Shown piece after piece: positions 23,244-64,000 of a stretch of 64,000 nt of DNA (position 1 is the first letter of the stretch; each line of letters starts with the position of its first letter). The translations under genes and the position numbers were made by a program. The notes under the pieces were generated by a model. That model saw only the letters and a program-made list of their open reading frames with translations, searched no databases and had not been told where the DNA came from. This stretch comes from Nemertoderma westbladi (Eukaryota; Animalia; Xenacoelomorpha). The stretch lies in the NCBI GenBank assembly GCA_032718475.1, contig JAUCBJ010004375.1:1-64000 (forward strand). The letters are read 5' to 3'.

Positions 23244-24477
23244 TGTTCGCGCTTTTGAAGACCTTTAGCAGTTTAACCTGCCAAAATTTATATGTCTTTT
23301 AGTTAATTAACACACCTTTAGCATACGACAATATTTTATGCTAATAAACAAAACATTAGCCGAAGCCAGCCCATGCGCGATCATTCACCCGATGGATCTA
23401 CACCCGGGAGGCTGAATTCGGATGCTTAGATTTTATTATTGCAGTGTAAGGTTGCAGTGTAAACCTATTGTATTATTCGATAGATCACTAATATGTAATT
23501 TCTGACAGATATTATTAACTTTCGGGAAATATTAACAGTTCCTTTAGGACGTGGCGCTCTATCTATTTAAACAGAGCTAGGACTTATACTAAACGCAACG
23601 ATAAGGCTTATGATTAAAGTATAAGTCGCATTCTTTAGGAAATGCTTTGTTACCAGTCACATCACACTCACAATCATGCACACTATTCTGCCGACCGTCA
23701 GTATATTTGATCACACATGAAGAGAACAGCAATTGACTCAGGTAGTGTCTACTAAATAACATTAGATTCAATACACACCACATTGATATAAATCGCAATT
23801 GTTAGGTATAGCCGGTCTCTCTAACCTGTAGTGTATCAAGAAAATTGGGAATTAGGGTGATTTATCCGTATTATCCAAAGAGCAATATTTCCATCAACAA
23901 ATAGGTACAATTAATAACTGACGGTAAATAGCAGTACAAACAATATGATTAGTGCAGTTAAATTAAGTGAGGTAACACCGCCGCCGGTAACAGTTATACT
24001 TTCTATAATCTAAGCAGTTTACTAGAGTTCTTCCCTAAAGGCCGGTGTTTCTGGCTTAGACAGCAATAACAACAAAGTATCAAGTAAAAACAGTAAGACT
24101 GAACACTCTCCTTATGATCGACTAAAAGCTACACGTCGACAGGAAAAACCGCCCTGATTGGCCCAAGCCAAACAAAGAACCACGCGTCCAATGGCTGTTT
24201 CCATGTCAGCAACCAGCTGCTAGATGTCGTAATATGAATCATCACGGCTAAGCTGTGAAAGGTAGTTGGTGCATTACAAGTTTTTGCCTTACCATGTCCG
24301 CCAAAATACGTATATAGCAGAATGATTTTTATGTCCGTTAAAACACCTGTAAAGGTACCTTGCGGGCGAGGGGAATATATATACAGTTAGAAAACCTTTT
24401 TAGAGTATTCCAGCGCCTGGGGGGAAACTGGATTGCGAAGCAAAAGGGGCCAGTTATATCCCACAGAAGCTTTTACA
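23244..24477 (-). repeat. 3' LTR of element B
   Basis: Direct repeat of 33950-35183. Confidence 0.96.
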
Positions 24478-24555
24478 CCGCTCCCAGAAAATGGGATTTA
24501 AGTCTATAAAATATACAAAATCACAGTTTCTCAAATACGAAAATACTCTAAACAG

Positions 24556-25844
24556 TTAGTCTTTCATGCGCGGACGGCGTTTACGCAGTTTTTTAAAGCT
24601 AGCCAGAGTCTTTTTCTCTTTGGGGCGAGCCACTTTACAAGGAGGGCTATAACTCATGGGTGAAGGGTGCAACATGATTGCATCAGAGGGTATAGGATTA
24701 TGGTCGGTGTATCCGCCAGTCGAAGTGCCGAGTTGATTGACATCAACGTCGGGGGAGAGGGGTCTAACGGCTTTGAGAGCTCGTTTCAAGACAGCCGCTC
24801 TTACGGGTCCTTTACGAGTGGTCTGAATGAGGGCCGTGGGTGGACCATAGGCAGTTAGAAACTTCCTTGGTTTAATGGTTTTTTCCAACTCGCGTTCGCG
24901 GGCTCGGTACTCGTAAGGCCGTCGATATACTTCCTGTAACTCGATATGCGTGATTTCTGTTCGACAGAAGCGAATAGATAAGGATGGAACGCATAAATTC
25001 CTTCGTAAGCGCGTCCAGGATAATAGCGATGGCGCGAATCACGATGTAAATCAGCGTTCGCTTCCCAAGCTCTAATGTAACGTAGTGTGATCATTTCATC
25101 TACGCTTTCCAAATCGCGATTAAAAGGGCAATCGAAACTGGCGTGTCCCTTTAGTGGACAGTGGTGACATTGAGTCATAAATTGAGGGCAAACCGCAAAA
25201 ATATGCAAATTATTAAATCTGCAATACGCTCAATAAATTTCCATCGCCGGTTGTTCGTGGAAATAGGAACAGCGGACGTTTGTGTCCATGGGCGTAACAT
25301 GGTCTCTCGATGCGCATAACCGACAACGCTGCCGAGAAACATAGTTGGCATGGCGATAATCGTACGCAGTGAGACACTGTGGACCTTGATACCATTCTAG
25401 GATGTAATCGTTGTCGCTGTTCCGAGCGCGATAGGCTGAATCTCCTCAGATTCTAGACATATTGGTTCGTCTTCCCAGTCTGTTACGAATAGAATTTTCG
25501 TGATCTATTCTCGTTTTATCGTTACGACGCCGCTGGGTATGATATTTAAATAGAACCATTTCCCTTTCGGTGTCTACATCGTCCGTATCATGTAAATCGA
25601 TAGGATGGCCGGTAGTTAGGAAGTCCATATACGTACCATTGCGATTCGTATAGCGAGCGGTGAATTTTCTATAGTCCGCTTCACGCGTAAGTTGTTCCTG
25701 GGACATCGGCGGTTCGATATAACGACCATCGTCCTCCGTAATAGTCGGATCGGCTTCACCGCGTATCAAGCTATCCACAAACGCTTGCAAAGGTAGATTA
25801 TATCGCTCTCTAATACCAAGGTCATCTTCTATCAATTCCGTCAT
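24556..25844 (-). pseudogene. Element B accessory ORF with zinc-knuckle region, homologous to the C-terminus of the D accessory ORF
   Basis: One frame from 25844 reads ...QRCRLCASRDH...IY*AYCRFNNLHIFAVCPQFMTQCHHCPLKGHASFDC...WEANADLH, aligning with D RRCKLCGSTRH...VCRWCNETDHSFHTCTVFISQCGYCGVKGHRSARC...WEGVADYH. Two in-frame TGAs and a likely frameshift near 24880. Confidence 0.75.
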
Positions 25845-33938: not shown

Positions 33939-33949
33939 ATAACTGTTAC
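33939..33949 (-). promoter_or_regulatory. Non-tRNA primer-binding site of B (GTAACAGTTAT)
   Basis: Abuts the 5' LTR end. Exact reverse complement of the sense LTR segment 34703-34693. Confidence 0.75.
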
Positions 33950-35183
33950 TGTTCGCGCTTTTGAAGACCTTTAGCAGTTTAACCTGCCAAAATTTATATG
34001 TCTTTTAGTTAATTAACACACCTTTAGCATACGACAATATTTTATGCTAATAAACAAAACATTAGCCGAAGCCAGCCCATGCGCGATCATTCACCCGATG
34101 GATCTACACCCGGGAGGCTGAATTCGGATGCTTAGATTTTATTATTGCAGTGTAAGGTTGCAGTGTAAACCTATTGTATTATTCGATAGATCACTAATAT
34201 GTAATTTCTGACAGATATTATTAACTTTCGGGAAATATTAACAGTTCCTTTAGGACGTGGCGCTCTATCTATTTAAACAGAGCTAGGACTTATACTAAAC
34301 GCAACGATAAGGCTTATGATTAAAGTATAAGTCGCATTCTTTAGGAAATGCTTTGTTACCAGTCACATCACACTCACAATCATGCACACTATTCTGCCGA
34401 CCGTCAGTATATTTGATCACACATGAAGAGAACAGCAATTGACTCAGGTAGTGTCTACTAAATAACATTAGATTCAATACACACCACATTGATATAAATC
34501 GCAATTGTTAGGTATAGCCGGTCTCTCTAACCTGTAGTGTATCAAGAAAATTGGGAATTAGGGTGATTTATCCGTATTATCCAAAGAGCAATATTTCCAT
34601 CAACAAATAGGTACAATTAATAACTGACGGTAAATAGCAGTACAAACAATATGATTAGTGCAGTTAAATTAAGTGAGGTAACACCGCCGCCGGTAACAGT
34701 TATACTTTCTATAATCTAAGCAGTTTACTAGAGTTCTTCCCTAAAGGCCGGTGTTTCTGGCTTAGACAGCAATAACAACAAAGTATCAAGTAAAAACAGT
34801 AAGACTGAACACTCTCCTTATGATCGACTAAAAGCTACACGTCGACAGGAAAAACCGCCCTGATTGGCCCAAGCCAAACAAAGAACCACGCGTCCAATGG
34901 CTGTTTCCATGTCAGCAACCAGCTGCTAGATGTCGTAATATGAATCATCACGGCTAAGCTGTGAAAGGTAGTTGGTGCATTACAAGTTTTTGCCTTACCA
35001 TGTCCGCCAAAATACGTATATAGCAGAATGATTTTTATGTCCGTTAAAACACCTGTAAAGGTACCTTGCGGGCGAGGGGAATATATATACAGTTAGAAAA
35101 CCTTTTTAGAGTATTCCAGCGCCTGGGGGGAAACTGGATTGCGAAGCAAAAGGGGCCAGTTATATCCCACAGAAGCTTTTACA
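33950..35183 (-). repeat. 5' LTR of element B
   Basis: Direct repeat of 23244-24477, flanked by TSD CTACC. Confidence 0.96.
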
Positions 35184-40131: not shown

Positions 40132-42334
40132 TGTTACGGTATATGGCGCTGTATCCATATTATTAGTCATCATGCAGTATGCAATATTAGTCCGTTATGC
40201 AGTATGCAATATTAGTCCGTTATACTGTATGTAATATTAGTCCGTTGTGCAGCATGATATTTTAGATAAGGCATAATAACGCAGTGGTATTTAGATAGGG
40301 AAATCGAAACACCCATATATTTGAATCCATCCATTTTGTATAGTATGTAGCCCTACCTACGTAATTTTGTATTAGGTTATATGTAGATAGTTCCAGGGTA
40401 AGTTTATTCGGACCCTGGATTCCGTGCTTGCTGATATTAGTTTTAGTAGGGCTAGCATATAGGGACGCTGTCCTGGCCATTCAGCAGCCAGAGACGTGAA
40501 CCATTACCATATATGGTAATAATTCGAGGAAGGGGAGCAAATAGGGCTACAATCCGGCCTCCTTATTGGACTAGCTGCTTCCAGGTTGGTCTAGTGCTAG
40601 CACGGACTGGAGAGCCAATAAGAAAGCGATTGAGTCACCCTATTGCATCACCCCATCCGGATCACCTATAAATTGGCGGTGTGCCGGTAGAGCCTCACTC
40701 TTATCACATGACACCTAGCCTTAGCACCTGTCTTACTGTTTTTCTTGATACTTGTATTTTTCTGCAATTTGCTAATTTGATTAATTTCTTGGAATGATTT
40801 GCTAGTGCGATTACTCTTGCTTGTGTTTCTCAATTAATTCCTGTCGATTACTGCTAATTACAACTGAACTATGATTTCTACCTTTTGATTAATGGTTCTA
40901 TGTGATTCTTTTCTGCGCAATAATCCTAAGGGATTCCTGAGACTGTCAGACTTTGTGATTTGCATGCGCCGCTACGGTAGCTATTAGCATAATGGAGGGC
41001 TAAGGCGCCAGTGGGCGGTGGGCACATCGGGGGGTTGAGCGACTAAGGGAGAGCAGAGGATTCAAAGGCAGGCAACGCTGGCGGGGGTCAACGTTGCGGT
41101 CGGGCAACTTGCGTGCAACGGGCAGACCTATCGCCGGTACAGTAATTAGGGGGCTGATGATCCAGGTTTCGTCTCTATTTAGTATTAGGGGGCAGGAATC
41201 AGGTTAGTTAGGAGTCCCATATGTACCCGTGAGAGGCCTGCACGTGTTACAGCGTATTAGAGCGTACAACGTTAAATGTAGAGTACGAATAGTGAGTCGC
41301 ATAATTGTGGACTATACAGTAGTTAACTGCATAATTGCGAACTGTAATTTCTGACGCTGATTGGTGTGTTATTGAAGTGTGCCTATGATTATGAATGTTT
41401 AGGTAGGCGCCCCCCTTTTCTTTGATTGATTTCTATTTCTTAGTTACAATAATTGGTTACTGATTAGGTCAAAGTAATACGGCAAAATTAGGCTATTACT
41501 AGCGAAACTTGTTGCGTAATAAATTAGAATTACGTATTCTGGAACTCTTAGTAATTAGTACGCTGTTAAATATTTGTGACTGTAATTAATTAGTAAAAAT
41601 TAAGAATTAGTACGCAGCATAGCGGAGAGTAGCTAAAGTAATAATTAGAGTACTGTAAACTATTCACGCTGAGCGGTTATTTGCATTAGCGGGCAATCAG
41701 CTAGATTGTACTATTCGGTACGCACGATACGCTAGTAATTTGCTGGTCTAAAGCCAGCTGCAGGCGATTTTAGACCCGGAGTGATGTTATTTACGTAGGA
41801 ACAGATACTGTACCGTTTTGATATTTAAATATTCTCGCATTCACACATTACGTTAGGGAACCTCCAGTATTCGCGATTAGAAAGACGTAGGTAATAGCGT
41901 GCTTTAATAGTGATAAAATTAGGCGTAAGAATACTCTGAGTGCAAGGCCTCTCGCACTCGTCTTAAGTAAGCTTAGGGAGCCGACTCGGGTTTATTGTTT
42001 TGGTTATTCCCGCGTGGCTCATAGATTCGAACAGTTAGCTCTCTATCGAGCGATCGGTAGAGAAAGGAACAAGCGATTTTGCAGGAGTTGTGTAAATTTA
42101 GTAAATATATTAGCGTACGGCAGATTAGCGCCATCTAACGATAAGTAGCGGTTTTGTATTTAGCAACCCTTACAATTTAGTAATATCACGCTCCTGATCC
42201 CCTTTACTTAACAGTAGAGCAGTTTTGTGTCTTATTGGTTAGACGAGAACTTATTAGATTGGCAGAAGGATATCAACGGGTATTGGTCTGTTCAACAGTT
42301 CTGCTGTTAGTATAGAGGTCGCGGTTGTTTATCA
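40132..42334 (+). repeat. 5' LTR of element D
   Basis: CCAAT near 40615, TATAAA at 40667-40672, AATAAA at 41518-41523, 25-bp tandem repeat x3 at about 40171-40250. Confidence 0.96.
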
Positions 42335-42346
42335 GTAACACGTGCA
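42335..42346 (+). promoter_or_regulatory. Non-tRNA primer-binding site of D (GTAACACGTGCA)
   Basis: Abuts the 5' LTR end. Exact reverse complement of LTR 41239-41250 (TGCACGTGTTAC). Confidence 0.78.
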
Positions 42347-43525
42347 TTTATTGGCTGTTGCTTGCAGCAGTCGATAGTGTATTCTTAGGCTGATTAGTAG
42401 TATCATAGTATTAGGCAATAAATTAGAGCACGTGATCGTCTGCTGTAGGCTATAGGCTAGCGTACGGTAAGACATTGAGCATATTCCTTTAGGTTGTTAG
42501 TTTAGATTACTGTATTCACTGGCTGCGTACAATAGTACAGTAGTACATTAGGCTGATTGCTGTTACTGCGTACGGTAGAAGGGACATTTGTTTTGCCGTA
42601 CCACACATACAGTATCATTAGGCTGTTAGGTTGGTGTACTGTTTTACTTACTGTACTGCATACGGTGGATGTACGGTAGTGCGTTTTGCTAATTGCGAAT
42701 ACAGCAGTTCCTTAGGCCTTAGGGCAAATTGTAATTAGTAAGTTTTTTGAAATTTTTAGCTAGGTTTGCGAGAATTCAGTTTCGGTCAAAATTATTTTGT
42801 AAAATTCTAGAGTTTTTGTACCGGTATGTTAGGTAACCGCTTAGTTATTTTATACCATCTGGAGATACATGGCAAGACGGAACTTCTGAGTTTGGGGTTC
42901 GTGTGGGTCTGCGGGTTCGGTTTGCAATCAGCGGAGAGCCTGAATCTTTGGACGCGGACGTGGAATCTCACAGCAAACAAGGTTAGTTGTTCTGTTGGCA
43001 CCAATGTGTTTGTGGAAGCAGTAAAAAATTATCGGTTGTTTAACTGCGAAGCTGAACTCAATTTATTAGTTAGGATATTTAGGTTTAGCCGGCCATGGTT
43101 TTTTGAATCGCTCAAGTTAGAGAGAGAGTTAGAGAGAGTCGCAACCCGAAGATGTAGCCACGCGCTAGTGGATACATATAATATTTGAAACTAAAATTAC
43201 GTTGATTAGAGCTATATATAAAATTAGAAATATTCGGGCGGCAAGTTTATTTTGAATATTTTGTATTAGATTCAAAGTTATTTTGTGCTATACCGGTATT
43301 TAATGCTATATAGTAGCTATATAATAATATTTTTGTTTAAATATTGTGTTAGTATTTGCTATAACTATATACCCCATTAAATTCACAATATTGCATTGCG
43401 AATTTATTTGACATTTGGACCAACTGATTATTAGACAAATAATTTGACCGTATTTCGGTTAAATTATAATAATATCTCGAACTTTTGCGAGATAATTTTG
43501 CCGGAAGGCAAACATTATTTAGACT

Positions 43526-46500
43526 ATGAGTGTCTCAGACAAAGAGGCACTAGAGGACAGCTACGAGACGGCGGCTGGACCGCCGACTGACGATAGCGTC
43601 AATATTACTGTTGACGACAATGCCGACTATGACGACGCAGCGAGCGACGCTGACGTAAGTGAACAGGAGGACGAGACAGTGACTAGTGAGGAAGAACAAC
43701 AACCTCAAGTAATAGTATTAGGATCCCCTACCGCTACTGATAGGAAGGACTGTACGGCAGCCCGGACAGAGGTGAGTGATAGGGAGAGTAGTGTAGCAGA
43801 AGCGAGAGCCCGGAGCCCGGTTTCCAGACCTGTGGGTATGGTAAGTGCCGTGGTCCCGACGGCTGTAAGGAGTACCCGTAGTTCCCGAAATAATCCTTCA
43901 AGTCCACCGAGTGTAAGTCAGGTAAGTGATAGAGAGTTCGACACTGCGATGAAGAAGAAACTTCGCGCGCATGCCGGACATATAACCCGGACGGCGGACA
44001 AGGTAAGGAAAATGTTAGCTGACTCAGCGAACATCGGGAGGGTAGAGTTAGCAGAGATTAGAAGAGAATATAACTCAGCGTTATTCAAGCAGACGGAGGA
44101 GCTTGCAGTCCTAGCAAAGAAGGCAGTAGAGTCTCAGTCGAGCGACGTGGCGACGAGGATTTACGACAGGGTTTTAGCAGCCTTGTTGGAGCACCGCGAG
44201 TTATCGGAGCGATTCCGACGAGTTAGGACGGAAAACTGGCTGCTATGGGCATCACAAATGCAGGCGACTCAGGTGAGTGACGCAAAGTTAAGAGACTTAG
44301 TGGAGCGAGAAGAGATCCAAGATAAAGAGGAGCGCCGTTATCAAAGGGAAGTTACTAGCTGGTTGATGCAGAATGGAGTGGTGGTACCGGGTCAGGTGCT
44401 ACCAACCACGGAGAACATCCAACAGAGGACGTTGACTCCACCTGATGACGCATCTAGAGACAGCGGCGATTCCCAGGTTAGTCACGCGCGAGGTAAGGTA
44501 ATATGTGCTAGATCCCTTGTTTCGCACAACTCGGCGGAGGAGAGAAGACGCCGACTGGACGAACAGCAGGCGGAAGTTTTGTGTGCATCGGAAGCACGGA
44601 AGGAAGCTGAGCGGGAACGGGAACGAACACGTAAGTTAGACGCGAAGTTGCGCGAACTGGAAGATAAAGGTAAGCGTGAGCGAGCGGAACGCGAGCAGAA
44701 GGAACGCGAACTTCAACTTGAACGCGAACGCAAGGAACGCGAACTCGAACTTGAACGCGAGCAGAAGGAACGCGAACTCCAGCTCGAACGCGAACAGAAG
44801 AAACGTGAACTCGAACTTGAACGCGAACGTAAGGAACGCGAACTCGAGATCGAAAAGGAGCGACAAGCGTTGTATGAAGAAAGGGCGCGTGTGGAAGAAG
44901 AGGGCGCAGCGAGACGAGCGAGGGAAGAAGAAGAACGTAAACTGGCGCAGTTGGAAAGTGCGAGATTAAGTTTAGAGAGCGAAGAACGGACTAGGAAGGC
45001 GAATGAAATCGCCGAGAAGGGGATGCGAATGATCGAAGAATGTGGGGCGAGTGTAGGGACTGAGTTGCGAGAACTGTTCGCACTGCAGAAGGCCGAACAG
45101 GAAGCGAGAACTCCGACCATACGCGAGTCGACGACGACCAGAATTCCTATACCCGGTCCAGCTATTACGAGTACACGGATCGCTAAACCATTCTCTACAT
45201 ATCGCACGCCAGTTGGTATTAGTGCTTCACCCATCGCGCAGAATCCACGTCATCGGAACACCGCACCACTATACACCGAACGAGAGAATGAAGAGTTTAG
45301 AGAAACTCCGACGGGACGAGTACTTGGCGAACCGAACCCGCGGGTTTGGAATACGCGGACGGAGCGCCGACCCAGTTCGACGGAGAACTTCCGGGTTAAA
45401 CCGGAAGAGGGATCATATGAGAGACAGCGGATTACTCAGATAGAGCCGACTATACAACAGAACCCTAGCCAGGAATTTATTACGAGGGATGAGTTAAGTG
45501 CTAGTTTAGCGCAAGCTATATCGCCGCACATCCAACCTATAACGGACATGCTTAGCAACCTACGGTTAAAGGAAGCAGCCCAGGTAAGAAGTAATTCTAA
45601 TCCCAGCAGGCCTGAGTTAGATAAAGTACAGCCTAGTCAACGAGTACGCATATCGGAGGAGACTATACCACATAGACCTCAGGTAAGGACGCCTGTCCCG
45701 AATATTCATAATCCCAATTTCGAAAACTCAGCCGAGAAATTTATTCAGGAGGCTTGGGTCAGGGCCTCGGGGCGCAAACCATCGCGAGCGCTAAGGACTG
45801 ACACCGAGTCAAGTGATGAAGAGGAAGAAATGAGACGTCAGAAGTCCCGAAACTATAAGGAAAGAAGGACCGACGCGGAGCAGGTAAGTTGGAACCACCG
45901 GGAAAGGACCAGACTTAACAACCCTGCGGAACTAAACCATTTGTTAACCCGGAACGACGCAACCCTTAGGGACATAGGTAAGTTTGCTGCTAGGCAAGGA
46001 CTGCCGACGCAACAACCCCAGAAGTTTATGGGCAACCATAAACACTGGAGGACTTTCAAAACCTATGTCGACGAGCAGCTAACCAACAGCACCTTTACTC
46101 CCAACGAGAAGTTCAACTATTTGCTTCAGATGCTCCATCGAGAACCTAGAGCCATTGCTGATAACTTCGTCGGCAATGAGAGAGCATTTGAGTTAGCGAT
46201 GAAGACGCTTAGTGACATCTACGGGAATAAAACCAAGATGGCGCAGTCAATAGTAGAAGACTTGGGTAAGGGCGGAAGGATTACAACTCCGTTAGAGCTG
46301 TTGAACTTAGCGAACGCTATTTCGAACGCATTGGATATCTTGAAGACGGTGAATCTACCTCATCATGGTGATCACGCCGAGGTTTTGAAAGGCGTAATAA
46401 GACATTTAAACATGCGTTATCGACAGAAATGGCGCAAATTAGAGAATAAGTTGGAGGGCCAAGGTAAAGTATTGACACTTCAGCATATTCATGACATGAT

Positions 46501-49500
46501 AGCCACAGACGCAGTAGCAGAGATGAAATCAAACTTCTCAGAAGAGAATATGAGGGAGTCTAAACCTGTTACCGGTAAGTCTATGGTAAGTTTTGACGAT
46601 GACAGGACCACTGTGACATTTAACTCAGTAGACAGATATAATTCGAATACCCCAGCCTTTAGATCAGACTCGCGAGTATGGTCAGGTGAGCGGTTAGATA
46701 GACCTAGGTTAAAGCAACAGGAGTTGCCGGATGGATTTGTAGGTTGCCAATACTGTTTACTAAAGGAGGTAAGATCTGACGACCATAAGTTGGATAGTTG
46801 CAGACGGTTCAAAGAATTAAATTCGGAACAGAGAAGAGTTCAAGTGCGGACGTTGGACACCTGTTGGGCATGTCTTGCGCCAGGTCATGTACGGCGGCAG
46901 TGCCCGAACAGCAAGGACGGATGCATGGAATGCGGCAGACTACATCACAAGTTGCTACATGCGGATTTCCACACCCCAACGGACCGTTACTTACAGCGAA
47001 ATCCTCACAGGAAGGGGAGCAAAGAACCCGTATCGATAAGAAGGAATACGTACACTGGCATCCAGGACGATGGTTATCAACCAGGTTCGTCGGACGAGGA
47101 TGGCGAGTCGAGCGCGAGAGAAGTGACCTGCCAAGGTTTCACCGCGGATAGTTCATCGACCAGCGCGCGGACGTATTTATCATCGGCCACGTCGGAAATA
47201 TTTAGCGTGATTCCGGTGAAACTCACTGGCGATAAGGGATCGAAGCGAATATATGTGATGTTGGACACTGCGTCCACATTATCCTATATCGACGAGGAAG
47301 TGGCGAGAGCTGTTTCTAGCTTCCAGAACGCCGAGGAGATCCAAATAGAGTTGAAGTCTATGCACGGGGTAGGAGACCTCAAGGGACACAGAATTTCGGT
47401 AGAACTAGATTCCCTACTTCCGAGAGACCAGCATACTCGACAAGAACGGAAAGCTTTGCCATTGGACGGATTTAAGTGTCTAGCTATGAAGGGATTCGGC
47501 AGGCAGTTAGGTAAGGTGCCGCTGATGAGTCCCATAGCACAGGAGTATTTTGACAAGCTCAGGATACCCAGACACCAGGTAGGTTATAGGAATGTTTCTA
47601 TGTTAATTGGTGCAGAACAGCTGATCGCACACCAGATATGGGAAACGAGACCAGCTGAGCCGCATGTCAATGGACCGCATGCCCATAGGACTATATTAGG
47701 TTGGTATACACGAGTACCCATGTCTTATGAGTTTACAGGTGGCGACAAGCCAATGGATAGATACGACGAATTACAGCCTATAACCCAACCACCGTTAGTA
47801 GAACCACCAGACATAGACGAGTTTAGGAGAACCTGTATTGACCACTATAGTGACTTTAGCGAGTCGGACGAGGAGTTGATTCCCGATAATGTTAGGTTGT
47901 CGGAACCACTTCACAACGACCGGACAGATAGTGAACCCGAGGACTACTGTTATCAGACCCGTGGGTCTGGTTCAGCGGCCCACGCTACCTATTTGACTAA
48001 CGTTTTGACTTATACAGACATAGTGGAGGGTCAAGTGGCTAAATATCGAGACCTAGACATTTTCCAATACAGTGAGGAGGAATTACAGAAGGAATTGATA
48101 CGCCAGGACCTCGAGACAGGAGCCAGAACCGTCGAATGGCTGGATAGGGACGCAATGGAACCCGGTGGATATGACCTAGTCATGTCTACTGATGAGAAAC
48201 GGTCGTTGGAGATGATGGAAGACACCATACGTCTACTACCGACTGGACATTTTGAAGTTGGAATGTTGTGGCGTCGACAACCACCTAAGTTGGAGAACAA
48301 CTACAATTTAGCCTTGAAAAGATTAAACGGAGTAAGGGCTCGGTTGTTGAGGAATCCAGACATTAGGGAGAAGTATTGCGCCCAGATCAACAACTATTTC
48401 GCCAAGGGATTTGCTGGGAAGGTAGAGGACCCTGACTTAGTGACAGACCAGACTTATTACCTTCCACACCACTATGTGACTCACCCTGACAAGCCAGACA
48501 AAGTCCGAGTAGTCAACGACTGCGCAGCAGTCTATAGAGGTATGTCCCTGAATTCAGAGTTGATGGATGGTCCCAACCTGAACAACTATTTGATTGGAAT
48601 ACTGTTGCGTTTTAGACAGCGGCGATTCGCATTTACTTGTGACATCGAGGCGATGTTCCACCAGGTAAGAGCCTGTAAGGCAGACCAGGATAGCCTTCGC
48701 TTTCTCTGGTACGAGAATGAAGACTTATCCGGCCCAGTGGTTACATACCAAATGTACGTTAGGATATTTGGCGCCCGCGATAGTCCGAACGGCACGCTGT
48801 TTGTTCTAAAGAAAACGGCAACAGCCCAGATTGGTAAGTACCCAGTAGAGGTTATCGAGTCCATCTTGAGAAACTTCTATATGGACGACGGATTGGTGTC
48901 CAAGGACACAGCGGAACAAGCCATAGAAGTGGCTCATGGCCTGCAAGAGTGCTTGGCTACAGGGGGTTTTCCTCTAACCAAGTTCACTACTAACTCGGAG
49001 GCCCTATTAGAGTCGTTCCCGGTGAAAGATCGCGGGAGCGGAGACATAGAATTGGGGGTAGAACCAATCCCCATGGCGCGAGTACTGGGACTCGCTTGGA
49101 ACCCGAACTCAGACAAGTTCCAGGTAAGAGTTAGATTTGAGCCCAGTAGCCCAGACAAAGTTTTGACTAAGAGGATTTGCTTATCGACATTGAGTAGACT
49201 ATTTGACCCGATGAACTTTATCAGTCCGGTTATATTACAGGCACGAGCGTGCATGAGGAAAATTTGGTTGTCCGACGTAGAGTGGGACGAACCAATATCT
49301 CCTATACATGCAAAGCAGTGGAGGGAGTGGGAAGCCGAGTTGCATCTATTGAAAAATATAGATGTACCCCGTTCCTACTTTCCGAATCAGCTGGTATTTC
49401 CAGCTGATTTAGAGCTGCATCTGTTCAGTGACGCAAGTGACACCGGCTTTGGTATGGTAGCCTACCTTCGCCGAGAGGTAAGTCAGGACAAGTTTGAGAC

Positions 49501-51899
49501 GGCCTTTGTGACTTCTAGATCAAAGACAATGCCGGTCAAATACATGACTGTCCCTCGTGCAGAGTTACAGGCGGCTGTAGTTTCAGTCGAGGTAAGTAAG
49601 CAAATAACTGAGGAGTTAGACACGACATTGACCTTATTCTATTGGACGGACGCATCCTTGGTTTTAGTATACATTGCGGCCGACAATATTGCACTAAAGA
49701 CATTTGTGGCCAATAGACGCGCTCAGATCGTTGATTTTTCGACGAAGGAACAGTGGAGACATTGTCCGGGAGTGTTGAACCCGGCCGACATAACTTCGAG
49801 AGGTGCAATGCCGGCGGAATTCTGTCAGGAAGAGTCGCAGGAGTTTTGGTTGCATGGACCTGATTTTCTAACGAGGACACAGGAACATTGGCCAGAGCGA
49901 CTAAAGATAGTGACCAATCCGATGCCTGAAGATGCAGAAGTCAAAGTGGAGAAAGTCTCTAAGTCGAAGTCTAAAGCCAAACTTGAGTCATTGGAGCGGC
50001 CCGAAGAGTCATTGGAGCGGCCTGAAGAGTCATTGGAGCGGCCTGAAGAGTCATTGGTGCGGCCTGAAGAGTCATTGGAGCGGCCCGGAGACCTGTCAGA
50101 CCAACAGACTTACGTGACTACTAGGTCCGGAAGGGTAAGTTATGACATCAAACCACCCTTACAGACTAAACCGGAGTCACAATTGGTAAGTGACGGACAG
50201 AAAATGACCGACACAATGGAGTCTTTGGTTTCCAAACCTGCGGGTTTGGATTCGAAACTTCCATTAGTTAGCGGACAACCGTCACTGGCATTAGAGTCAT
50301 GCAGTGTTTATGACAAATTACTAAATTCGTCTGCCTCTTGGCTGACAATTTGTAAAAGAACTGCGTGGTTAAGCCGATACATTTTGTACCTTTGTTTAAA
50401 ACATTCGAAACATTTGAGAGAACCATTGAGCACCAATAGTGAGCGAATTCGGAAATTGAAACAACCTCTGACAGAGGATGAGATTGATCAAGCGGAATTA
50501 AGGCATTTGAAACATTATCAAATGTGTGCCTTCCCTAAAGAATTCCATCTATTATCGGCTCAACGACCAGTTCTCTATGAACCCCTTAGAAAATGGAGTC
50601 CATTAATCCATAAGGGTTTAATTTGTCATAGATCGAGAATCCAGACTGTCGACATAAACTCACAGTTTAGGTTCCCAGTGATAATCCCTAGTCACCCAAT
50701 AGAATTGCAAAGAGCGATTCTATGGGATATACACAAGAGGTTACATCACGCGGGAAGGTTACACTGTTTGTCGACTGTTTGTTAGACAGCGATTCATTCT
50801 ATTGCAGCCAAGCAGGGCAGTCGGCACTATGTATGACGCCTGTCTGGTTTGCAAGAGAGTGAACGCCAGAGTATTGGAACAGGAGATGGCTGAACTCCCG
50901 GAAGCGAGAGTGCAGGCATATGACCCACCCTTTACGAACACAGGGGTGGATTGTTTTGGTCCGATTGAAGCAAAGAGTGGACGGCTGACCCACAAACGAT
51001 GGGGTCTGCTACTGACATGTATGGCTAGTAGAGCCATACACATCGAGCGTGTGGCAGACATGTCGACCAAATCTCTGCTCCTGGCCTTGAAGAGATTTAT
51101 GGCCAGGAGAGGACTAGTAAAGGCGTTCTACTCCGATAAGGGTACAAACTTTGTCGGAGGGAATAGCGAGTTGAACGCGGCTCATAAAGTAGCACAGAAT
51201 AAGGAAATTTCTGTAGCACTTTTGCCGCAACGAGTAGAATGGAGATTTAATACTCCAGAGAGTCCTTGGAGAGGAGGAAGTTGGGAGCGTTTGGTTCGCT
51301 CTGTGAAGCAGGCCATTGCCAAAACATTGCCTGTGAACAAACAACTTACCGACGACGAACTGGTTACAGCTTTCATTGAAATCGAGCATACCCTAAACTC
51401 GAGGCCGATAGCTATGTTGCCAGACGGTGTTGCATTAACGCCGAATCATTTGCTAATGCAGAGTCCAGCATTTCTTGTGCCGGCATCAGAACCCATTAGT
51501 GCCGACCTATATAGTCGTAAAAGCTGGAAAGTGACTCAATTAGTAGCGTACACATTCTGGGAATATTGGCGGGAATACTATCTTCCCACCATATCCACCA
51601 GAACAAAGTGGTACAAAACGGTTCGGAGTCTCCAAAGGGGAGATTACGTGTTGATAACCGAACCCATTGTCAAGAGAAAGTATTGGGAGACTGGAGTGAT
51701 CTTGCACACACACCCAGACGTGCAAAACATAGTGCGCACAGTCACTGTGAAAATTAGGTGCAAGTGTCCGCACCCAAAAAAGTGTAAAACTAATGGTTTA
51801 CACACCTTGGACCGACCGGTCCAAGATATCGTGTTATTAGAGGAGACACGTATCGAGACGGGAGATTATAATTTGTCTCCTGCCTCAAAACAGAGTTAG
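43526..51899 (+). pseudogene. Element D gag-pol polyprotein (Gag, PR, RT, RH, IN) broken by one 4-bp duplication
   Basis: The 2419-aa ORF has MLDTAS, FYMDD, LFSDAS and NPADITSRG. The integrase ORF 50802-51899 is in another frame. TGTT is duplicated at 50776-50783, and removing one copy restores HCLSTVRQRFILLQPS (A has HCLSFLRNRFVLIKPS). Confidence 0.95.
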
Positions 51900-52956
51900 T
51901 GTTAGACGCAACTCACTTCGTATGCATTCCTCGTATGCAAATACAAGGAAATGCATAGGAGCGGGGTTGTGGTGATTTGCGTTGAGTTTTGTCTGGTGGG
52001 TATCAAAACAAAATTTTATTTCAAAAGTGGAAAATTAAAAATTTTAAAATTAGAAAAGTGAACCCAAGACAATTCCAGACGCTGTGTATAGACGCGTTTT
52101 AGAATTTGTCTATAGATAACAGTAATTTGAAAAGTCGTGAAGCCTGGAAAATAGCATTTAGAAACCATGGTGACGGCTATATTACGTAGGAGTGTAAATT
52201 GAGTTTAGCAACTTCCACAGATTGGTGCCAACAGTGCAACTAAGGTGCTAAAGGTTAGTAGCACCAGAGGCGTGCACGGACCCCACTCAGTAGTTTGCAG
52301 GATGTGTGATGTTCGATTATCAAACCTGTGGGTTTGGTATAGTCGAGTATTGTGGCTATAGTCCTTTCTAACTACTGTAGTTTAGTACGAGTAATGGGAG
52401 TAGTTTGGGCATCAAAAAGTGAGTTGGTCACGGCCAGTTTATCTCCAAAGTTTTTGCGCTATGCATGGGAATAGGTTAGAGGATAGTTAGTTAGGAAGAG
52501 ACGGGATCTAGAGAGTCGAACCTGAACTGCTGGAAGGCGGGGGGGTTCGGGAGGTCTGTCCTTCGGCGACATCTAACTGATTTACCCACATTGTAGTTGG
52601 TTACGTAACGGCACTTATTGGGATATATATATGTATATACGCGTAACATAATGGAGAGGGATATTAGAGCGCAACCGCGCAGAGGATTTACTGCCAGAGA
52701 GGAGGCGGAGCTACCATTCGCGCGACCAGGATGTAAAGACTCTAACGTTTACTATCATGGGCGGTCCGTGATGGAGCTGAACGGAAAGTACAAGCCAAGT
52801 TATGATAAAGAATTACGGAGAGAAAGAATGAGAGCGTTGGGGGACCGGATGGAAGTCTTGCGGAGAGAGTATCGCACGCGGTATCCCTACGACTTTGCTT
52901 TGGACGTGTGTGACATCAGCGCAGATCCGGACGAGGAAATCGCATGACTATACCAT

Positions 52957-55900
52957 ATGAATATGTATTTACGACACGAGGAGCCTCTACCTGCAGTCCG
53001 AGACCAGTTCGACGGAATGCATCTGTATCGGAGGACTCGAGGCGAGGATCAGGAGACGCCGAAAGTCTTCAGCGTATACAAGCTCTTCTACAAGTGTGGT
53101 GAATGCATGAATAAACAAGACGTGGCGATTCCCGACCGACTAGACGAGCAACATCCGGAACCAATATTAACGCGATGTCCAGCTCACCAATTCCTTAGAT
53201 ACAACGAGGGAGGTTACCCGATGAGCAACCCGATGATCAGTATCGACTTCAGCGGAAAGCGACCTCCGAGACCCATTACGCCGACCGTTACGACATTAGA
53301 TCCGTATACGGAGATTAAACCCTGTTCGACACCCAGTTTGATAGAGACGGCAGCGGCCATTTCGCTGTACCGAGCCTACAAGGATCTAGAGGCGCGGCGC
53401 GAAGCGGCGCGGGACTCGGGTACCAAACCCGCGGGTTTGGAGCTCTCGAGTCCCTGGACTGCGTTTACTTCACCTCACCGAGTGAGAAGCCTCACGCCTG
53501 AGCATCAGGACGACATAGACGCGTTGCGGCAGGAGGAGCGAGCGGTGAAGGCGAAGGAGTTATTTGAGAACAGGATAGCGGAGTATAATAAGACCGCGGA
53601 TAGACATCAAGAGGAGACGAGGAGAGTGACCGGATTTGTTCCACAGGTCGTATCTCAACCCGGACCGGTGTATTATTCCGACGGCACTGAACCTGCGATA
53701 TTAGTAGATCATCCGGAGTCGCGAGAAGCGATACGATTCTTGCCGATGGTAAGAATGGCGGACCATTGGAACGTTGACTGTTTACGGGAAGTTTTATGCG
53801 CGAAGTTCTTGCGTGATGTCCCAATGCAGATCACAGATTACGACACGTTGGATAAGATTGGAGCTCCGGGGAAGGAGAGTAAGTTATTCGGATGGTTGGA
53901 TAAGTACATCAAGGTATGGGTCGCGGTGGCTACATTCCCAGACGACGAGGAGGTAGACCAGACGTGGCTGAGGAGGAAGGGTTCTTATACCCGATATGAT
54001 GACCACAAGGCGATCGAGCGCATGTGGACCCCATCAGATGAGATTCAGCGTCAGTGGAGGAAAACGGAGGAATCACTGCAGGATTGGAGAGTGATGTTCT
54101 ACGACAATGAAGGAGGGTCCCATCAGGAATGCTTGACTAGCAAGTGTATTCAAATTCGTGCGGCCGATGGTGTGACTCATGTGTTTATGCGTGTGAGGGC
54201 GGATCGAGAGAGACCGGAGCCCATCATAACGACACAATATCGGAAGGGGAAGGATCCTAGGGAACAGATTTTGGAGGTATGCAGGCGAGGAGGTATGCAT
54301 GGAGCGGAGCGTATCGACGCCAGGATGTTACCCAAGAAAGTTAGAGAGGCTATTCTCAACCAAGATTACGTCAAGGTGGGATCGGGAGTCCAGAGCGATT
54401 TGGAGAGCGACTTCAACGCTATGACTGATCTGGAAGATAGATTGCCTAGACCGTTTGTCGACACCAAGCTATTGTTGCTATGGGCACAGGATATTGGAAT
54501 TTATAGGGAGTATCCCAACTCTGCCAAGACTGGTATGGGCTTTATAGCACACTTGTTGTATAATTGGGACTTTAAGTTGAAGACGCAGAAGAAGTATGAG
54601 GAGGCGTATGGCGAATACAACACGCCACCGGGAGCGGAGTTCAAATCCCACTTCAAGCGGCAAGCGTTAGTGTATTGGAACATTTGCGCGCCACCCCGTG
54701 CGTCGCTACAATATTATTTGGTGCTTGAGTCGAACACGGTGACTTGTTTATTAGCGGATATCGTTGCGCGAGTTTTGAAGCGTCATCCATTGGTATTCGG
54801 AGGAGATCAATACGTTCGCTCGAAAGGGGGAATCCAATCCGACGTGATGAAGCGTTTCTTAACCCCGTTCTTCAACCAATCGTTAGAGAATACGTCGATG
54901 GTGAGGAGAGGATTAGCGATATTCGAAGGAGTATATCGACAGAACATCGGAGATTTGGGAGACCGACCGTCGATGGAATATCCGACGCCAGAAGCTTTGG
55001 AGAAGTGGTTCGGGAATCAAACCCGCGGGTTTGGTACTCCCTTCCACTCGGAGGCTGATAGACCTGTTAAGGAGGGCTGGCCGGAGACTTTAGTAGAGGT
55101 GTTCGGAGTAGATCTTCCGGTGGAGAAGACATATCCGAAACGAACGCGGGAGGAAATATTGGAGATAGAGGATAAGGGCGAGGATGTTTACTTTGTTCCG
55201 GATCGACAACCGTTGACTGGAGAGGACGACATCGGATTAGACATTGGGAAGGAAGGAAGTGCGAAACCGATTGGAGACCTCATATACGAGAGGGCCTGGT
55301 TTCCACAAGCGCGTAGGTGCAAATTGTGCGGCAGCACAAGGCACAATCTAAAGTCGTGCGACGCGGTAATAGAGGCGGCGCATAAGGTCTGCCGTTGGTG
55401 TAATGAGACCGACCATTCGTTTCATACGTGCACCGTCTTCATTTCTCAATGCGGATATTGCGGGGTAAAGGGACATCGTAGCGCAAGATGTCAGCTACGA
55501 GATGATTCCTTTCAAAACCATAGCGCTAACCTACTTCGGGAGATGTTAGATAAGTGGGAGGGTGTGGCCGATTACCATATCCAAGCGCAGATGCGTTGGT
55601 TACCATTTAAAGCGGGATATGGGTTTTGGGCGGTAGACCCATCGCATGTTGCGTACGAGCCATATTTACAATCGCTACCACAATATCAGGAGCTCATCCT
55701 AACTGCTCAAGACCTTCCACAGAACACTGGAGTTATCGTAGTTCGAGAGTACTTCAGACAATTGAACATGGACAATAAGTACACATGGAACTTCGTTGCC
55801 ATTTGCGATCGCATTACGAAGGGTGTATTTACGGAGACTAGAAAGGTGGTACGCGCGCGAGGAGATTGGAGGATGGCGGCTATACAGTACCGCAACGAAT

Positions 55901-56091
55901 TCTTGTTGACTCATGTGCCAGTGGGTTCATTGACCGCTGAGAGGATACAAGAGCAAAGGATCGCAGCGACCACAGCGACGACCGCTGGAGCGCGAGGCTC
56001 GCGGAAAGAACCAGGAGGAGAGGTCCAAGACAAGCGTCAAGTCAAGGACGACCACTACCATTCGATACCTAAAGAGGTGAGGTCTCTATAG
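52957..56091 (+). CDS. Element D accessory ORF: DEDDy-like 3'-5' exonuclease domain plus three CCHC zinc knuckles
   Basis: FYDNEG (ExoI), CIQI, LPKKVREAILNQDYVKVGSGVQSD (ExoII), FVDTK, GMGFIAHLL, WN...LQYYLVLES (ExoIII-like) at about 54090-54770. CKLC..H..C, CRWC..H..C and CGYC..H..C at about 55318-55492. May begin at ATG 52651 across a TGA at 52945. Confidence 0.8.
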   Translation: MNMYLRHEEPLPAVRDQFDGMHLYRRTRGEDQETPKVFSVYKLFYKCGECMNKQDVAIPDRLDEQHPEPILTRCPAHQFLRYNEGGYPMSNPMISIDFSGKRPPRPITPTVTTLDPYTEIKPCSTPSLIETAAAISLYRAYKDLEARREAARDSGTKPAGLELSSPWTAFTSPHRVRSLTPEHQDDIDALRQEERAVKAKELFENRIAEYNKTADRHQEETRRVTGFVPQVVSQPGPVYYSDGTEPAILVDHPESREAIRFLPMVRMADHWNVDCLREVLCAKFLRDVPMQITDYDTLDKIGAPGKESKLFGWLDKYIKVWVAVATFPDDEEVDQTWLRRKGSYTRYDDHKAIERMWTPSDEIQRQWRKTEESLQDWRVMFYDNEGGSHQECLTSKCIQIRAADGVTHVFMRVRADRERPEPIITTQYRKGKDPREQILEVCRRGGMHGAERIDARMLPKKVREAILNQDYVKVGSGVQSDLESDFNAMTDLEDRLPRPFVDTKLLLLWAQDIGIYREYPNSAKTGMGFIAHLLYNWDFKLKTQKKYEEAYGEYNTPPGAEFKSHFKRQALVYWNICAPPRASLQYYLVLESNTVTCLLADIVARVLKRHPLVFGGDQYVRSKGGIQSDVMKRFLTPFFNQSLENTSMVRRGLAIFEGVYRQNIGDLGDRPSMEYPTPEALEKWFGNQTRGFGTPFHSEADRPVKEGWPETLVEVFGVDLPVEKTYPKRTREEILEIEDKGEDVYFVPDRQPLTGEDDIGLDIGKEGSAKPIGDLIYERAWFPQARRCKLCGSTRHNLKSCDAVIEAAHKVCRWCNETDHSFHTCTVFISQCGYCGVKGHRSARCQLRDDSFQNHSANLLREMLDKWEGVADYHIQAQMRWLPFKAGYGFWAVDPSHVAYEPYLQSLPQYQELILTAQDLPQNTGVIVVREYFRQLNMDNKYTWNFVAICDRITKGVFTETRKVVRARGDWRMAAIQYRNEFLLTHVPVGSLTAERIQEQRIAATTATTAGARGSRKEPGGEVQDKRQVKDDHYHSIPKEVRSL

Positions 56092-58210: not shown

Positions 58211-60413
58211 TGTTACGGTATATGGCGCTGTATCCATATTATTAGTCATCATGCAGTATGCAATATTAGTCCGTTATGCAGTATGCAATATTAGTCCGTT
58301 ATACTGTATGTAATATTAGTCCGTTGTGCAGCATGATATTTTAGATAAGGCATAATAACGCAGTGGTATTTAGATAGGGAAATCAAAACACCCATATATT
58401 TGAATCCATCCATTTTGTATAGTATGTAGCCCTACCTACGTAATTTTGTATTAGGTTATATGTAGATAGTTCCAGGGTAAGTTTATTCGGACCCTGGATT
58501 CCGTGCTTGCTGATATTAGTTTTAGTAGGGCTAGCATATAGGGACGCTGTCCTGGCCATTCAGCAGCCAGAGACGTGAACCATTACCATATATGGTAATA
58601 ATTCGAGGAAGGGGAGCAAATAGGGCTACAATCCGGCCTCCTTATTGGACTAACTGCTTCCAGGTTGGTCTAGTGCTAGCACGGACTGGAGAGCCAATAA
58701 GAAAGCGATTGAGTCACCCTATTGCATCACCCCATCCGGATCACCTATAAATTGGCGGTGTGCCGGTAGAGCCTCACTCTTATCACATGACACCTAGCCT
58801 TAGCACCTGTCTTACTGTTTTTCTTGATACTTGTATTTTTCTGCAATTTGCTAATTTGATTAATTTCTTGGAATGATTTGCTAGTGCGATTACTCTTGCT
58901 TGTGTTTCTCAATTAATTCCTGTCGATTACTGCTAATTACAACTGAACTATGATTTCTACCTTTTGATTAATGGTTCTATGTGATTCTTTTCTGCGCAAT
59001 AATCCTAAGGGATTCCTGAGACTGTCAGACTTTGTGATTTGCATGCGCCGCTACGGTAGCTATTAGCATAATGGAGGGCTAAGGCGCCAGTGGGCGGTGG
59101 GCACATCGGGGGGTTGAGCGACTAAGGGAGAGCAGAGGATTCAAAGGCAGGCAACGCTGGCGGGGGTCAACGTTGCGGTCGGGCAACTTGCGTGCAACGG
59201 GCAGACCTATCGCCGGTACAGTAATTAGGGGGCTGATGATCCAGGTTTCGTCTCTATTTAGTATTAGGGGGCAGGAATCAGGTTAGTTAGGAGTCCCATA
59301 TGTACCCGGGAGAGGCCTGCACGTGTTACAGCGTATTAGAGCGTACAACGTTAAATGTAGAGTACGAATAGTGAGTCGCATAATTGTGGACTATACAGTA
59401 GTTAACTGCATAATTGCGAACTGTAATTTCTGACGCTGATTGGTGTGTTATTGAAGTGTGCCTATGATTATGAATGTTTAGGTAGGCGCCCCCCTTTTCT
59501 TTGATTGATTTCTATTTCTTAGTTACAATAATTGGTTACTGATTAGGTCAAAGTAATACGGCAAAATTAGGCTATTACTAGCGAAACTTGTTGCGTAATA
59601 AATTAGAATTACGTATTCTGGAACTCTTAGTAATTAGTACGCTGTTAAATATTTGTGACTGTAATTAATTAGTAAAAATTAAGAATTAGTACGCAGCATA
59701 GCGGAGAGTAGCTAAAGTAATAATTAGAGTACTGTAAACTATTCACGCTGAGCGGTTATTTGCATTAGCGGGCAATCAGCTAGATTGTACTATTCGGTAC
59801 GCACGATACGCTAGTAATTTGCTGGTCTAAAGCCAGCTGCAGGCGATTTTAGACCCGGAGTGATGTTATTTACGTAGGAACAGATACTGTACCGTTTTGA
59901 TATTTAAATATTCTCGCATTCACACATTACGTTAGGGAACCTCCAGTATTCGCGATTAGAAAGACGTAGGTAATAGCGTGCTTTAATAGTGATAAAATTA
60001 GGCGTAAGAATACTCTGAGTGCAAGGCCTCTCGCACTCGTCTTAAGTAAGCTTAGGGAGCCGACTCGGGTTTATTGTTTTGGTTATTCCCGCGTGGCTCA
60101 TAGATTCGAACAGTTAGCTCTCTATCGAGCGATCGGTAGAGAAAGGAACAAGCGATTTTGCAGGAGTTGTGTAAATTTAGTAAATATATTAGCGTACGGC
60201 AGATTAGCGCCATCTAACGGTAAGTAGCGGTTTTGTATTTAGCAACCCTTACAATTTAGTAATATCACGCTCCTGATCCCCTTTACTTAACAGTAGAGCA
60301 GTTTTGTGTCTTATTGGTTAGACGAGAACTTATTAGATTGGCAGAAGGATATCAACGGGTATTGGTCTGTTCAACAGTTCTGCTGTTAGTATAGAGGTCG
60401 CGGTTGTTTATCA
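58211..60413 (+). repeat. 3' LTR of element D
   Basis: Direct repeat of 40132-42334, followed by TSD ACTGG. Confidence 0.96.
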
Positions 60414-63096: not shown

Positions 63097-63109
63097 TATG
63101 AAAATTGAA
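63097..63109 (-). promoter_or_regulatory. Non-tRNA primer-binding site of A (TTCAATTTTCATA)
   Basis: Abuts the 5' LTR end. Exact reverse complement of the sense LTR segment 63896-63884. Confidence 0.78.
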
Positions 63110-64000
63110 TGTAAAACTATCTGCATAAGAATCCCCGACCAGGCAGATCTATATGTGAACTACTAATCAACGATTCCCGGGTCGAGATCTCCACAAAGAA
63201 TATAATTTACCGCTATAGCGGGTCCTTATCTGATCTACTAAACAGCCTCCCCAGACTGTATATTTTCTAGGATAATATATTGATAATTTCGAGTTCAATA
63301 AATATTTCAGGTTTTTATAAAAAACATTTCCCATATGAACAGCAATTGCTGAATATGTAACAGTAACAATAAATGGATAACAAATTCACGCCAAACTGTT
63401 TATCTAAATTTACATCAGACTTACCGTAATTCTAAAAATTGCAAATATCTCGGCAAGAATTGTCTAATTGTCCTTGTCAGCTAGGATACAGTGCCTAAAT
63501 TGTCCATAGCGCAAGTTAGTTGTATAGTGGCAAATAACTAATTTCCACCTAATATAGAATAATTCCTAACAGTCTGTCAGTCATGCACAGCAGAATATAT
63601 TCCAACATTCCAGAATATGACATTCCAGAACACAAAATTATGTATAAGTAAACAAATTAATTCTACACCACCCTGCACAGTAACCAAGGAACTCAACTGA
63701 TGCTGCCTGGAACCCAACAACCAATCAAATGTCGGCTCACGCATAGCAACCACGAATTGAGCTCCTATAATCTCTTGCCAAGGCTACGCTAAACTGAGGT
63801 ATAGAATTATTCACCTATAAATAACTATTGGCTTATTTTCTGCTGTTGCGTTGTGCGTGTTTTTTGCTTCGCTGTGCGGATTGTTCAATTTTCATACGGG
63901 TGTCCTAAATTTTGTAAGGCTGGTGAAATGTAAGACAGCTAAAGTTGATGACCTACACCTGACAAATGTTTCTCCCATTTACTCGTAATGATGCTCTAAC
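63110..64000 (-). repeat. 5' LTR of element A (partial)
   Basis: Direct repeat of 18183-19073. Confidence 0.95.

Follow-up and report, generated by a model that had tools for sequence, protein, structure and literature searches.

Which RNA primes reverse transcription of the long terminal repeat (LTR) elements nested in contig JAUCBJ010004375.1 of Nemertoderma westbladi, and does the primer form the 5′ end of that RNA, as in Tf1, or lie inside it? The window, that is the whole stretch of 64,000 nt analysed here, was read for nested elements by self-comparison and Pfam, and our census of copies is that of the window. It holds three nested BEL/Pao-type LTR elements, which we call A, B and D, and one solo LTR related to D. 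The original prediction had placed a self-primer inside the transcript. Our results indicate that A, B and D are almost certainly primed by a segment of their own LTR and that this segment is probably an internal part of a longer RNA and not its 5′ end, as judged from sequence and from analogy with distant relatives.

The first 12 (D), 11 (B) and 13 (A) bases past the 5′ LTR, which make up the primer-binding site (PBS), are exact complements of a segment inside the LTR of the same element, and complements of the observed length were reached in none of 2000 dinucleotide shuffles of each LTR. The three PBS sequences are different and each matches its own LTR only, with 5–8 nt against the other LTRs. 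The primer:PBS duplex stops flush at the terminal CA of the LTR, the next pair being mismatched. No TGG start of a tRNA-type PBS follows any of the three 5′ LTRs, and the window gave neither a tRNA nor a significant Rfam match (three Rfam matches had E values of 1–3, none of them in an LTR leader). Self-priming is strongly indicated because the complements are own-LTR-specific, flush and shuffle-resistant and because no TGG start and no tRNA match were found. The self-primer complement reported in the original prediction is thus real, and the positions and distances given there for CCAAT, TATA, primers, AATAAA and LTR ends in D, A and B were all right; the primer 3′ end lies 1084 nt from the LTR end in D (LTR end 42334), 774 nt in A and 743 nt in B. 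A 9-nt match of the bases beyond the D PBS to the CCAAT box was treated as chance. As a side observation, the primer ends in TTAC in D (41247–41250), B (34696–34693), the solo LTR (4244–4247) and two distant relatives (L004 and L006, below), and in TGAA in A; TTAC is possibly a preferred cut or priming end.

The promoter motifs place the predicted transcription start well upstream of the primer. What we call the best promoter is a motif call, made in LTRs that each contain 10–15 TATA-like words at one mismatch or fewer. D has 10 such words, yet only one strict TATAWA core, the TATAAATT at 40667, which lies 572 nt before the primer 5′ end and has a CCAAT box 52 nt upstream; its surroundings are identical between D and the solo LTR at 17 of 17 bases, against an overall identity of 70%. 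In the solo LTR the TATA lies at 3682 and the AATAAA at 4514. From these motifs, transcription of D is predicted to start near 40697, with the primer at about +543 to +554. A contains a perfect TATAAAAG at 19438–19431, its first T standing 469 nt ahead of the primer, and has TTAGT/TCAGT repeats from about 19408, about 30–60 nt after it. Both promoter candidates of B, a TATATATA at 35089 and a set (34867–34803) of CCAAT (34867), GC box (34860) and the initiator (Inr) TCAGTC (34808), are upstream of the primer by at least 100 nt, and by its Inr the B primer would fall at about +104 to +114. A leader of about 550 nt, as had been proposed, is predicted for D, part of which may be spliced out, but this length is not general: judged by its Inr, B would have a leader of about 110 nt. 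The D and B LTRs resemble each other detectably in one place only, a T-rich stretch of 25 nt (24/25, E 9e-5; 40730–40753 and 34805–34781), which is found just past each predicted start, about 510 nt before the primer in D and about 100 nt in B.

A TATA box at Tf1-compatible spacing, 26–34 nt before the primer, was found in none of the four LTRs. The best matches in that interval had 3, 3, 3 and 4 mismatches in D, the solo LTR, B and A, levels equalled at 58–95% of LTR positions and so at background. The ordinary distance from TATA to start is about 30 nt. The original prediction had named as its alternative a weak TATA-like motif ~20 nt upstream that would drive a Tf1-like start; this motif, CATATGTA in D and TATATGTA at 4215 in the solo LTR, stands only 21 nt ahead of the primer and is too close, so that CATATGTA would start an RNA near the primer 3′ end and not at its 5′ end.

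Outside the window, 21 metagenome BEL/Pao loci (25–42% identity) were compared. In seven of them (L001–L004, which are one family, L006, L007 and L018) the LTR end is followed by GTAAAAT; such an LTR end was not found in the 12 loci other than these seven, L009 and L019. In L006 (1281–2111) and L004 (278–973) the PBS complement is split 6+5 across a GT–AG intron inside the LTR: the contiguous complement is only 5 nt, and joining the GTRAGT donor to the YAG acceptor makes it 11 nt. In the shuffle test, made on these two loci, an 11-nt junction complement was reached in 0 of 1000 (L006) and 3 of 1000 (L004) shuffles. The same donor and acceptor are visible in L009 (about 8646–9300) and L019 (about 6700–7030), but no PBS; L007 begins after the donor, and the 5′ LTR of L018 is without a clean donor and acceptor. 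In L006 and L009 a TATAAAAG precedes the donor by 121 and 112 nt, respectively, which predicts a first exon of 80–90 nt and would put the primer end near +90. AATAAA follows the split-complement pattern within about 20–40 nt in the relatives. Six scattered junction matches of 10–11 nt in L009, L017 and L019 were treated as chance. The splice-junction relatives suggest internal self-primers among BEL/Pao elements and are the best independent sign of them, by analogy only, because in a quick tree (46 rows: D, A, four loci with intact frames and 40 of 120 listed homologues) they do not group as sister to D and A.

Promoter motifs with their conservation, the TATA-spacing scan and the splice-junction relatives together favour an internal primer, so that this part of the original prediction is upheld as probable and a Tf1-like 5′ end appears unlikely. 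A number of observations weigh against this conclusion. Its start site and primer end rest on motifs and analogy, and TATA-less starts are common in LTRs, where alternative starts also occur (PMC3601003, PMC5341516). The solo LTR does not share the Inr of D, a second perfect TATA follows downstream in A (18392), the Inr of B is not preceded by a TATA at the expected distance, a perfect TATA is missing from L004, and the splice-junction relatives, at 37–38% identity, stand outside the sister group of D and A. The primer:PBS pairing has no in-register extension, no extended pairing flanks the duplex, and the predicted pairing was weak in every transcript folded (mean probability 0–0.18). Whole-leader folds, in which long-range prediction is unreliable, did not form the duplex and did not separate the start-site models.

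Three routes, each of which means an internal primer, together make up the probability given to it: cleavage by RNase H, trimming, and a pair of promoters. Cleavage by RNase H is put first because it is described Tf1 chemistry and needs no ORF3, the third gene of D; by analogy, we give it a little less than an even chance. D RNA would start near 40697 and carry the primer inside its leader, nearer the start if the leader is spliced. The primer segment would anneal to the PBS, probably with nucleocapsid help, since folding alone does not favour the primer:PBS duplex, and would leave a long unpaired 5′ arm. The RNase H of the element's reverse transcriptase (RT) would then cut at the 3′ edge of the duplex and free a 3′ end at 41250, as in Tf1, where cleavage at the duplex edge has been described (PMC7175516). 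DNA would be copied through U5 as far back as 41251, and strand transfer would use as its repeat the ~290 nt from the cut to the predicted poly(A) site. The exonuclease of ORF3 may help in D, but is probably not part of the core mechanism.

An unlikely alternative to the RNase H cut is that a short LTR RNA acting in trans, or the 3′ copy of that region in the genomic RNA, has its single-stranded 3′ tail degraded as far as the primer:PBS duplex by a 3′–5′ exonuclease, the RNA starting near 40697 and being polyadenylated near 41540, and the nuclease being ORF3 in D and a host enzyme elsewhere. An exonuclease halting at the duplex would yield the observed flush end, and a primer RNA made and spliced separately would agree with the introns retained in the LTRs of the relatives. 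Past the primer, an AATAAA is present in D, the solo LTR, B, L004 and L006, but A has neither AATAAA nor ATTAAA there, and in D about 290 nt plus the tail would have to be removed. As regards the nuclease, D ORF3 shows DEDDy-like ExoI, ExoII and ExoIII motifs (D-x-E, D and Y-x3-E; residues 383–389, 476–485 and 587–594) and three zinc knuckles. Its sole relative among 1.84 billion representatives, P0123 (E 1.9e-6), has the same layout of acidic ExoI/II/III-like motifs followed by CCHC knuckles, and in both proteins the last D of the DEDDy pattern is E; in their alignment ExoII and ExoIII line up and ExoI was not lined up automatically. Word-index searches gave no relative beyond P0123, and viral contigs gave none. 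Protein-language-model neighbours belonged to 3′–5′ exonuclease clusters in 24 of 30 (score 0.90) and 25 of 30 (0.93) cases, with PF01612 on 50% and 34% of the members of those clusters; a score of 0.9 was also reached by 4–10 in 100 shuffled proteins. Pfam gave no match for ORF3 and only one at E 0.2 for P0123, NCBIfam and the PDB gave no exonuclease match, and the structure models of the two (pLDDT 32 and 37) were unusable. We read D ORF3 as a probable DEDDy exonuclease, with putative 3′–5′ activity.

A remnant of ORF3 is kept in B, reduced to the knuckles, while A and all 21 loci gave no exonuclease gene. Because of these absences ORF3 is a candidate helper and not the shared mechanism, which would have to come from Pol or from the host. 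ORF3 may equally act in trimming complementary DNA (cDNA) ends or in silencing, and the DEDDy ORF3s that other retroelements carry are not known to be linked to priming (PMC5408684). It is unlikely that D is a two-part primer factory, in which a short capped LTR RNA docks by its internal 12 nt and the element's own DEDDy/zinc-knuckle protein trims it. A DEDDy exonuclease of the RNase D type is also the third gene of the bdelloid LTR elements Juno and Vesta, where it has been proposed to process the 3′ ends of element RNA, an activity not shown there; the main text of that paper has no match to 'PBS' or 'priming' (PMC5408684). D differs in being a BEL/Pao element, in having the exonuclease joined to three knuckles, and in a mode of priming that needs an RNA 3′ end to be made. 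The words 'primer', 'tRNA' and 'exonuclease' had no match in PMC3118150.

As improbable as trimming is plain Tf1 geometry, with a TATA-less start at or just before 41239, the first 12 nt of the RNA as primer, and an upstream TATA that serves another transcript or nothing. This is the only demonstrated form of self-priming in the cited parts of PMC7175516 and PMC4600332, and a primer of 11–13 nt in a flush position matches Tf1. The conserved G-rich block, with its GC box (41013), could serve as a promoter without TATA, but the solo LTR does not retain this GC box. Immediately past the primer, identity between D and the solo LTR drops from 79% to 40%, and a drop also follows the upstream TATA. 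Against such a start, a TATA at the right distance is missing from all four LTRs, CATATGTA stands at −21 and within a predicted stem, R-U5 would be 743–1084 nt long, and the splice-junction relatives would need a first exon of 6 nt.

Less probable still is an arrangement of two promoters, the upstream TATA giving a primer RNA and a second, weak TATA giving genomic RNA from about 41249–41251, with the template left uncut. A TATA-like word stands exactly 33 nt before the first post-primer base in D (two mismatches), the solo LTR (one) and A (two), and in the solo LTR this word is followed after 31 nt by a perfect YYANWYY Inr. The pattern was noticed after the fact, however, and 25%, 5% and 32% of LTR positions match equally well; D and the solo LTR are not independent, B is without such a word, the hairpin stem also explains the word in D and the solo LTR, and the 3′ end of the primer RNA would still have to be made. 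Finally, it is very improbable that the complement is a structural pairing and that an unrecognised tRNA fragment or other host RNA primes. Half-tRNA priming does exist in copia elements (PMC6317226), and our tRNA search covered the window, but three unrelated PBS sequences each fit their own LTR only, flush with the LTR end; none of them starts with TGG, and the window yielded neither a tRNA nor a significant Rfam match.

The predicted leader of D differs in conservation along its length. Its T-rich part is 40% identical to the solo LTR and its G-rich block (40845–41238) 72–79%, a level no higher than that of two downstream LTR blocks (73% and 79%); as noted, identity drops right after the primer. 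Taken as a whole, the G-rich block is not folded more stably than its shuffled versions (z −1.4 and +0.3). The last 130 nt before the primer form the same long hairpin in D and the solo LTR, with two pairs changed on both sides (z −3.3 in D and −1.0 in the solo LTR, for boundaries picked after inspection). A hairpin abutting the primer in all families was rejected, the corresponding window ranking 3 of 52 in D, 12 of 48 in the solo LTR, 22 of 27 in B and 36 of 41 in A. A branch point and 3′ splice site were predicted within the hairpin region, the pyrimidine run doubling as the 5′ arm of the hairpin; the best upstream donor common to D and the solo LTR (40902) is weak. D may thus splice part of its leader: with its 3′ end at 41250, the RNA would measure about 554 nt unspliced, or about 270 nt if the predicted intron is real. 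A splice-junction primer in D, A or B was rejected, no junction beating the contiguous match, as was a hammerhead-like CTGATGA in D, which is not kept in the solo LTR. At the poly(A) signal of D, one X1 contig (depth 5; the RNA label of X1 is a guess) has G for the first A of AATAAA (41518), and therefore at least one related copy is without the canonical signal. The X1 contigs break near 40695–40703 and do not reach across the primer region or the PBS, and we take neither observation as evidence.

The PBS principle seen here, a site that adjoins the LTR and complements about 11 nt of the element's own LTR, is that of Tf1 and Tf2 of Schizosaccharomyces pombe, Tj1 and the Tf1/sushi group (PMC7175516, PMC4600332, PMC6317226), and it is shared by the predicted self-primers of the plant Tcn1 and TAR lineages (PMC6317226). 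Those elements are Ty3/gypsy or copia, whereas A, B and D are BEL/Pao by their Pol domains. In Tf1 the primer consists of bases 1–11 of the RNA, while here it is predicted to be 100–550 nt inside the RNA and lies 743–1084 nt from the PBS; the Tf1/sushi group has additional RNA structure around the primer:PBS duplex, and here no extra flanking pairing is predicted. As judged from sequence, A, B and D work like Tf1 but are no members of the Tf1/sushi group, because their Pol domains are BEL/Pao and not those of Ty3/gypsy chromoviruses. The supplements of PMC6317226 list predicted plant self-primers and may bear on primer position there.

With the Belpaoviridae as profiled by ICTV, the international virus-taxonomy committee, these elements share LTRs, a gag-pol with BEL/Pao-specific Pfam families, an integrase after RT-RNase H and an optional third gene (PMC8742986). 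They differ from the profile in having an own-LTR complement instead of an 18-nt PBS for tRNA-Arg or tRNA-Gly, LTRs of 1.2–2.2 kb instead of 0.2–1.2 kb, a D element of 20.3 kb against genomes of 4.2–10 kb, and in D an exonuclease-like third gene instead of an env-like one (PMC8742986). In the full-text literature, which leaves most subscription papers outside its reach, we found no paper on a self-priming BEL/Pao element or on an internal self-primer. Cer7 of Caenorhabditis elegans is reportedly a BEL-group element with its own tRNA-like primer outside the LTR and possibly an RNase D-like domain.

BEL/Pao elements are presented in the literature as primed by tRNA, with a replication that is poorly understood (PMC8742986), and self-priming has been demonstrated only with the 5′ end of the RNA, as far as the available parts of PMC7175516 and PMC4600332 go. 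Were an internal segment able to prime, the primer would not have to be at the cap. What is usually one R region would then be divided between a primer arm and a transfer repeat, and the primer position would not reveal the start site, contrary to a common assumption for self-priming elements. Our model predicts a cap near 40697, an RNA 3′ end at 41250 and strong-stop DNA ending at 41251 or at the cap. New here is the exonuclease-like third gene of D as a candidate primer trimmer, beside a probably internal self-primer in BEL/Pao; ORF3 offers a concrete test substrate for the unexplained exonuclease genes of retrotransposons. A primer factory in D, if true, would be a start mode distinct from tRNA, half-tRNA and Tf1 5′-end priming, and the first concrete job for retrotransposon-borne DEDDy nucleases.

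The lineage of the elements was read from Pol. DUF1759, Peptidase_A17 (E 5e-39) and DUF5641 occur in that order in D and A, which is the BEL/Pao domain set, and the integrase is placed after RT-RNase H in both, as expected of BEL/Pao. The proteins nearest in the RT region carry PF05380, at most at 42% identity; named homologues come from corals, molluscs, echinoderms, fish and other animals, and in the quick tree D and A share one long branch apart from the homologues. A, B and D are accordingly filed as BEL/Pao by Pol only. D (plus strand, 40132–60413) and B (minus strand, 35183–23244) both sit inside A (minus strand). The LTRs are 2203 (D), about 1768 (A) and 1234 bp (B) long. D, B and the solo LTR have 5-bp target-site duplications, and the 5′ LTR of A runs past the window edge. 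Coordinates are collected in Table 1.

Table 1. Positions of the elements, predicted signals and third-gene features in the 64,000-nt window
Feature	Positions	Strand	Remarks
D 5′ LTR	40132..42334	+	2203 bp, TG...CA; target-site duplication ACTGG; 4 differences from 3′ LTR
D reverse CCAAT (40565) and CCAAT (40615)	40565..40619	+	both present in solo LTR
D TATA box TATAAATT	40667..40674	+	sole strict TATAWA core in D LTR
D Inr-like site	40694..40701	+	predicted +1 at 40697, 30 nt past first T of TATA
D predicted leader 5′ of primer	40697..41238	+	variable T-rich part, then conserved G-rich block
D predicted long hairpin	41118..41245	+	3′ base overlaps primer start; D family only
D predicted branch point and 3′ splice site	41154..41182	+	top-ranked in D and at matching place in solo LTR (4178)
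D weak TATA-like CATATGTA	41218..41225	+	in hairpin stem; 21 nt before primer 5′ end, 33 nt before first post-primer base
D self-primer segment	41239..41250	+	12 nt, exact complement of D PBS
D AATAAA	41518..41523	+	only AATAAA/ATTAAA hexamer in D LTR; 268 nt past primer; present in solo LTR (4514)
D PBS	42335..42346	+	flush with LTR end; without TGG start
D gag-pol (DUF1759, Peptidase_A17) and integrase end (DUF5641)	43523..51899	+	overlapping frames 43523-50785 and 50703-51899
D ORF3	52948..56091	+	1047 aa, stop to stop
DEDDy-like 3′–5′ exonuclease motifs in D ORF3	54094-54729	+	by eye against family pattern
Three CCHC-type knuckles in D ORF3	55318-55476	+	
D 3′ LTR	58211..60413	+	second primer copy at 59318-59329
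A 5′ LTR	63097..64000	-	cut by window edge; primer copy 63896-63884; PBS 63109-63097
A 3′ LTR	18183..19950	-	start inferred from GGAGCGG/TG border common to B and D
A primer copy in 3′ LTR	18969-18957	-	13 nt, exact complement of A PBS
B 5′ LTR	35183-33950 (with PBS: 33939..35183)	-	primer 34703-34693; PBS 33949-33939
B primer	34703-34693	-	11 nt, exact complement of B PBS
Broken ORF3 remnant in B	24981..25358	-	knuckle region only; no exonuclease part detected
B 3′ LTR	23244..24477	-	identical to B 5′ LTR; target-site duplication GGTAG
Solo LTR, related to D	3142..5162	+	70% identity to D; duplication CACAC
Solo LTR primer position	4236-4247	+	8/12 bases identical to D primer

B (23244–35183) combines identical LTRs with only a gag-like ORF, a short pol fragment and the broken ORF3 remnant, and by these features it is a young non-autonomous element retaining the self-primer. 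A tandem duplicate of its LTR end and PBS is found just downstream of the first PBS (33822–33870 and 33906–33955). In A, between the integrase and the 3′ LTR, the minus strand holds a broken coding-like stretch (about 20640–21080) without a match to the ORF3 profile. Two tandem arrays lie at 8262–9394 and 10200–18182; the larger, of ~8 kb and with offsets in multiples of about 35 bp, adjoins the end of the 3′ LTR of A. A separate reverse transcriptase fragment (RVT_1, E 3e-17) is located at 5889–6878, outside A, B and D.

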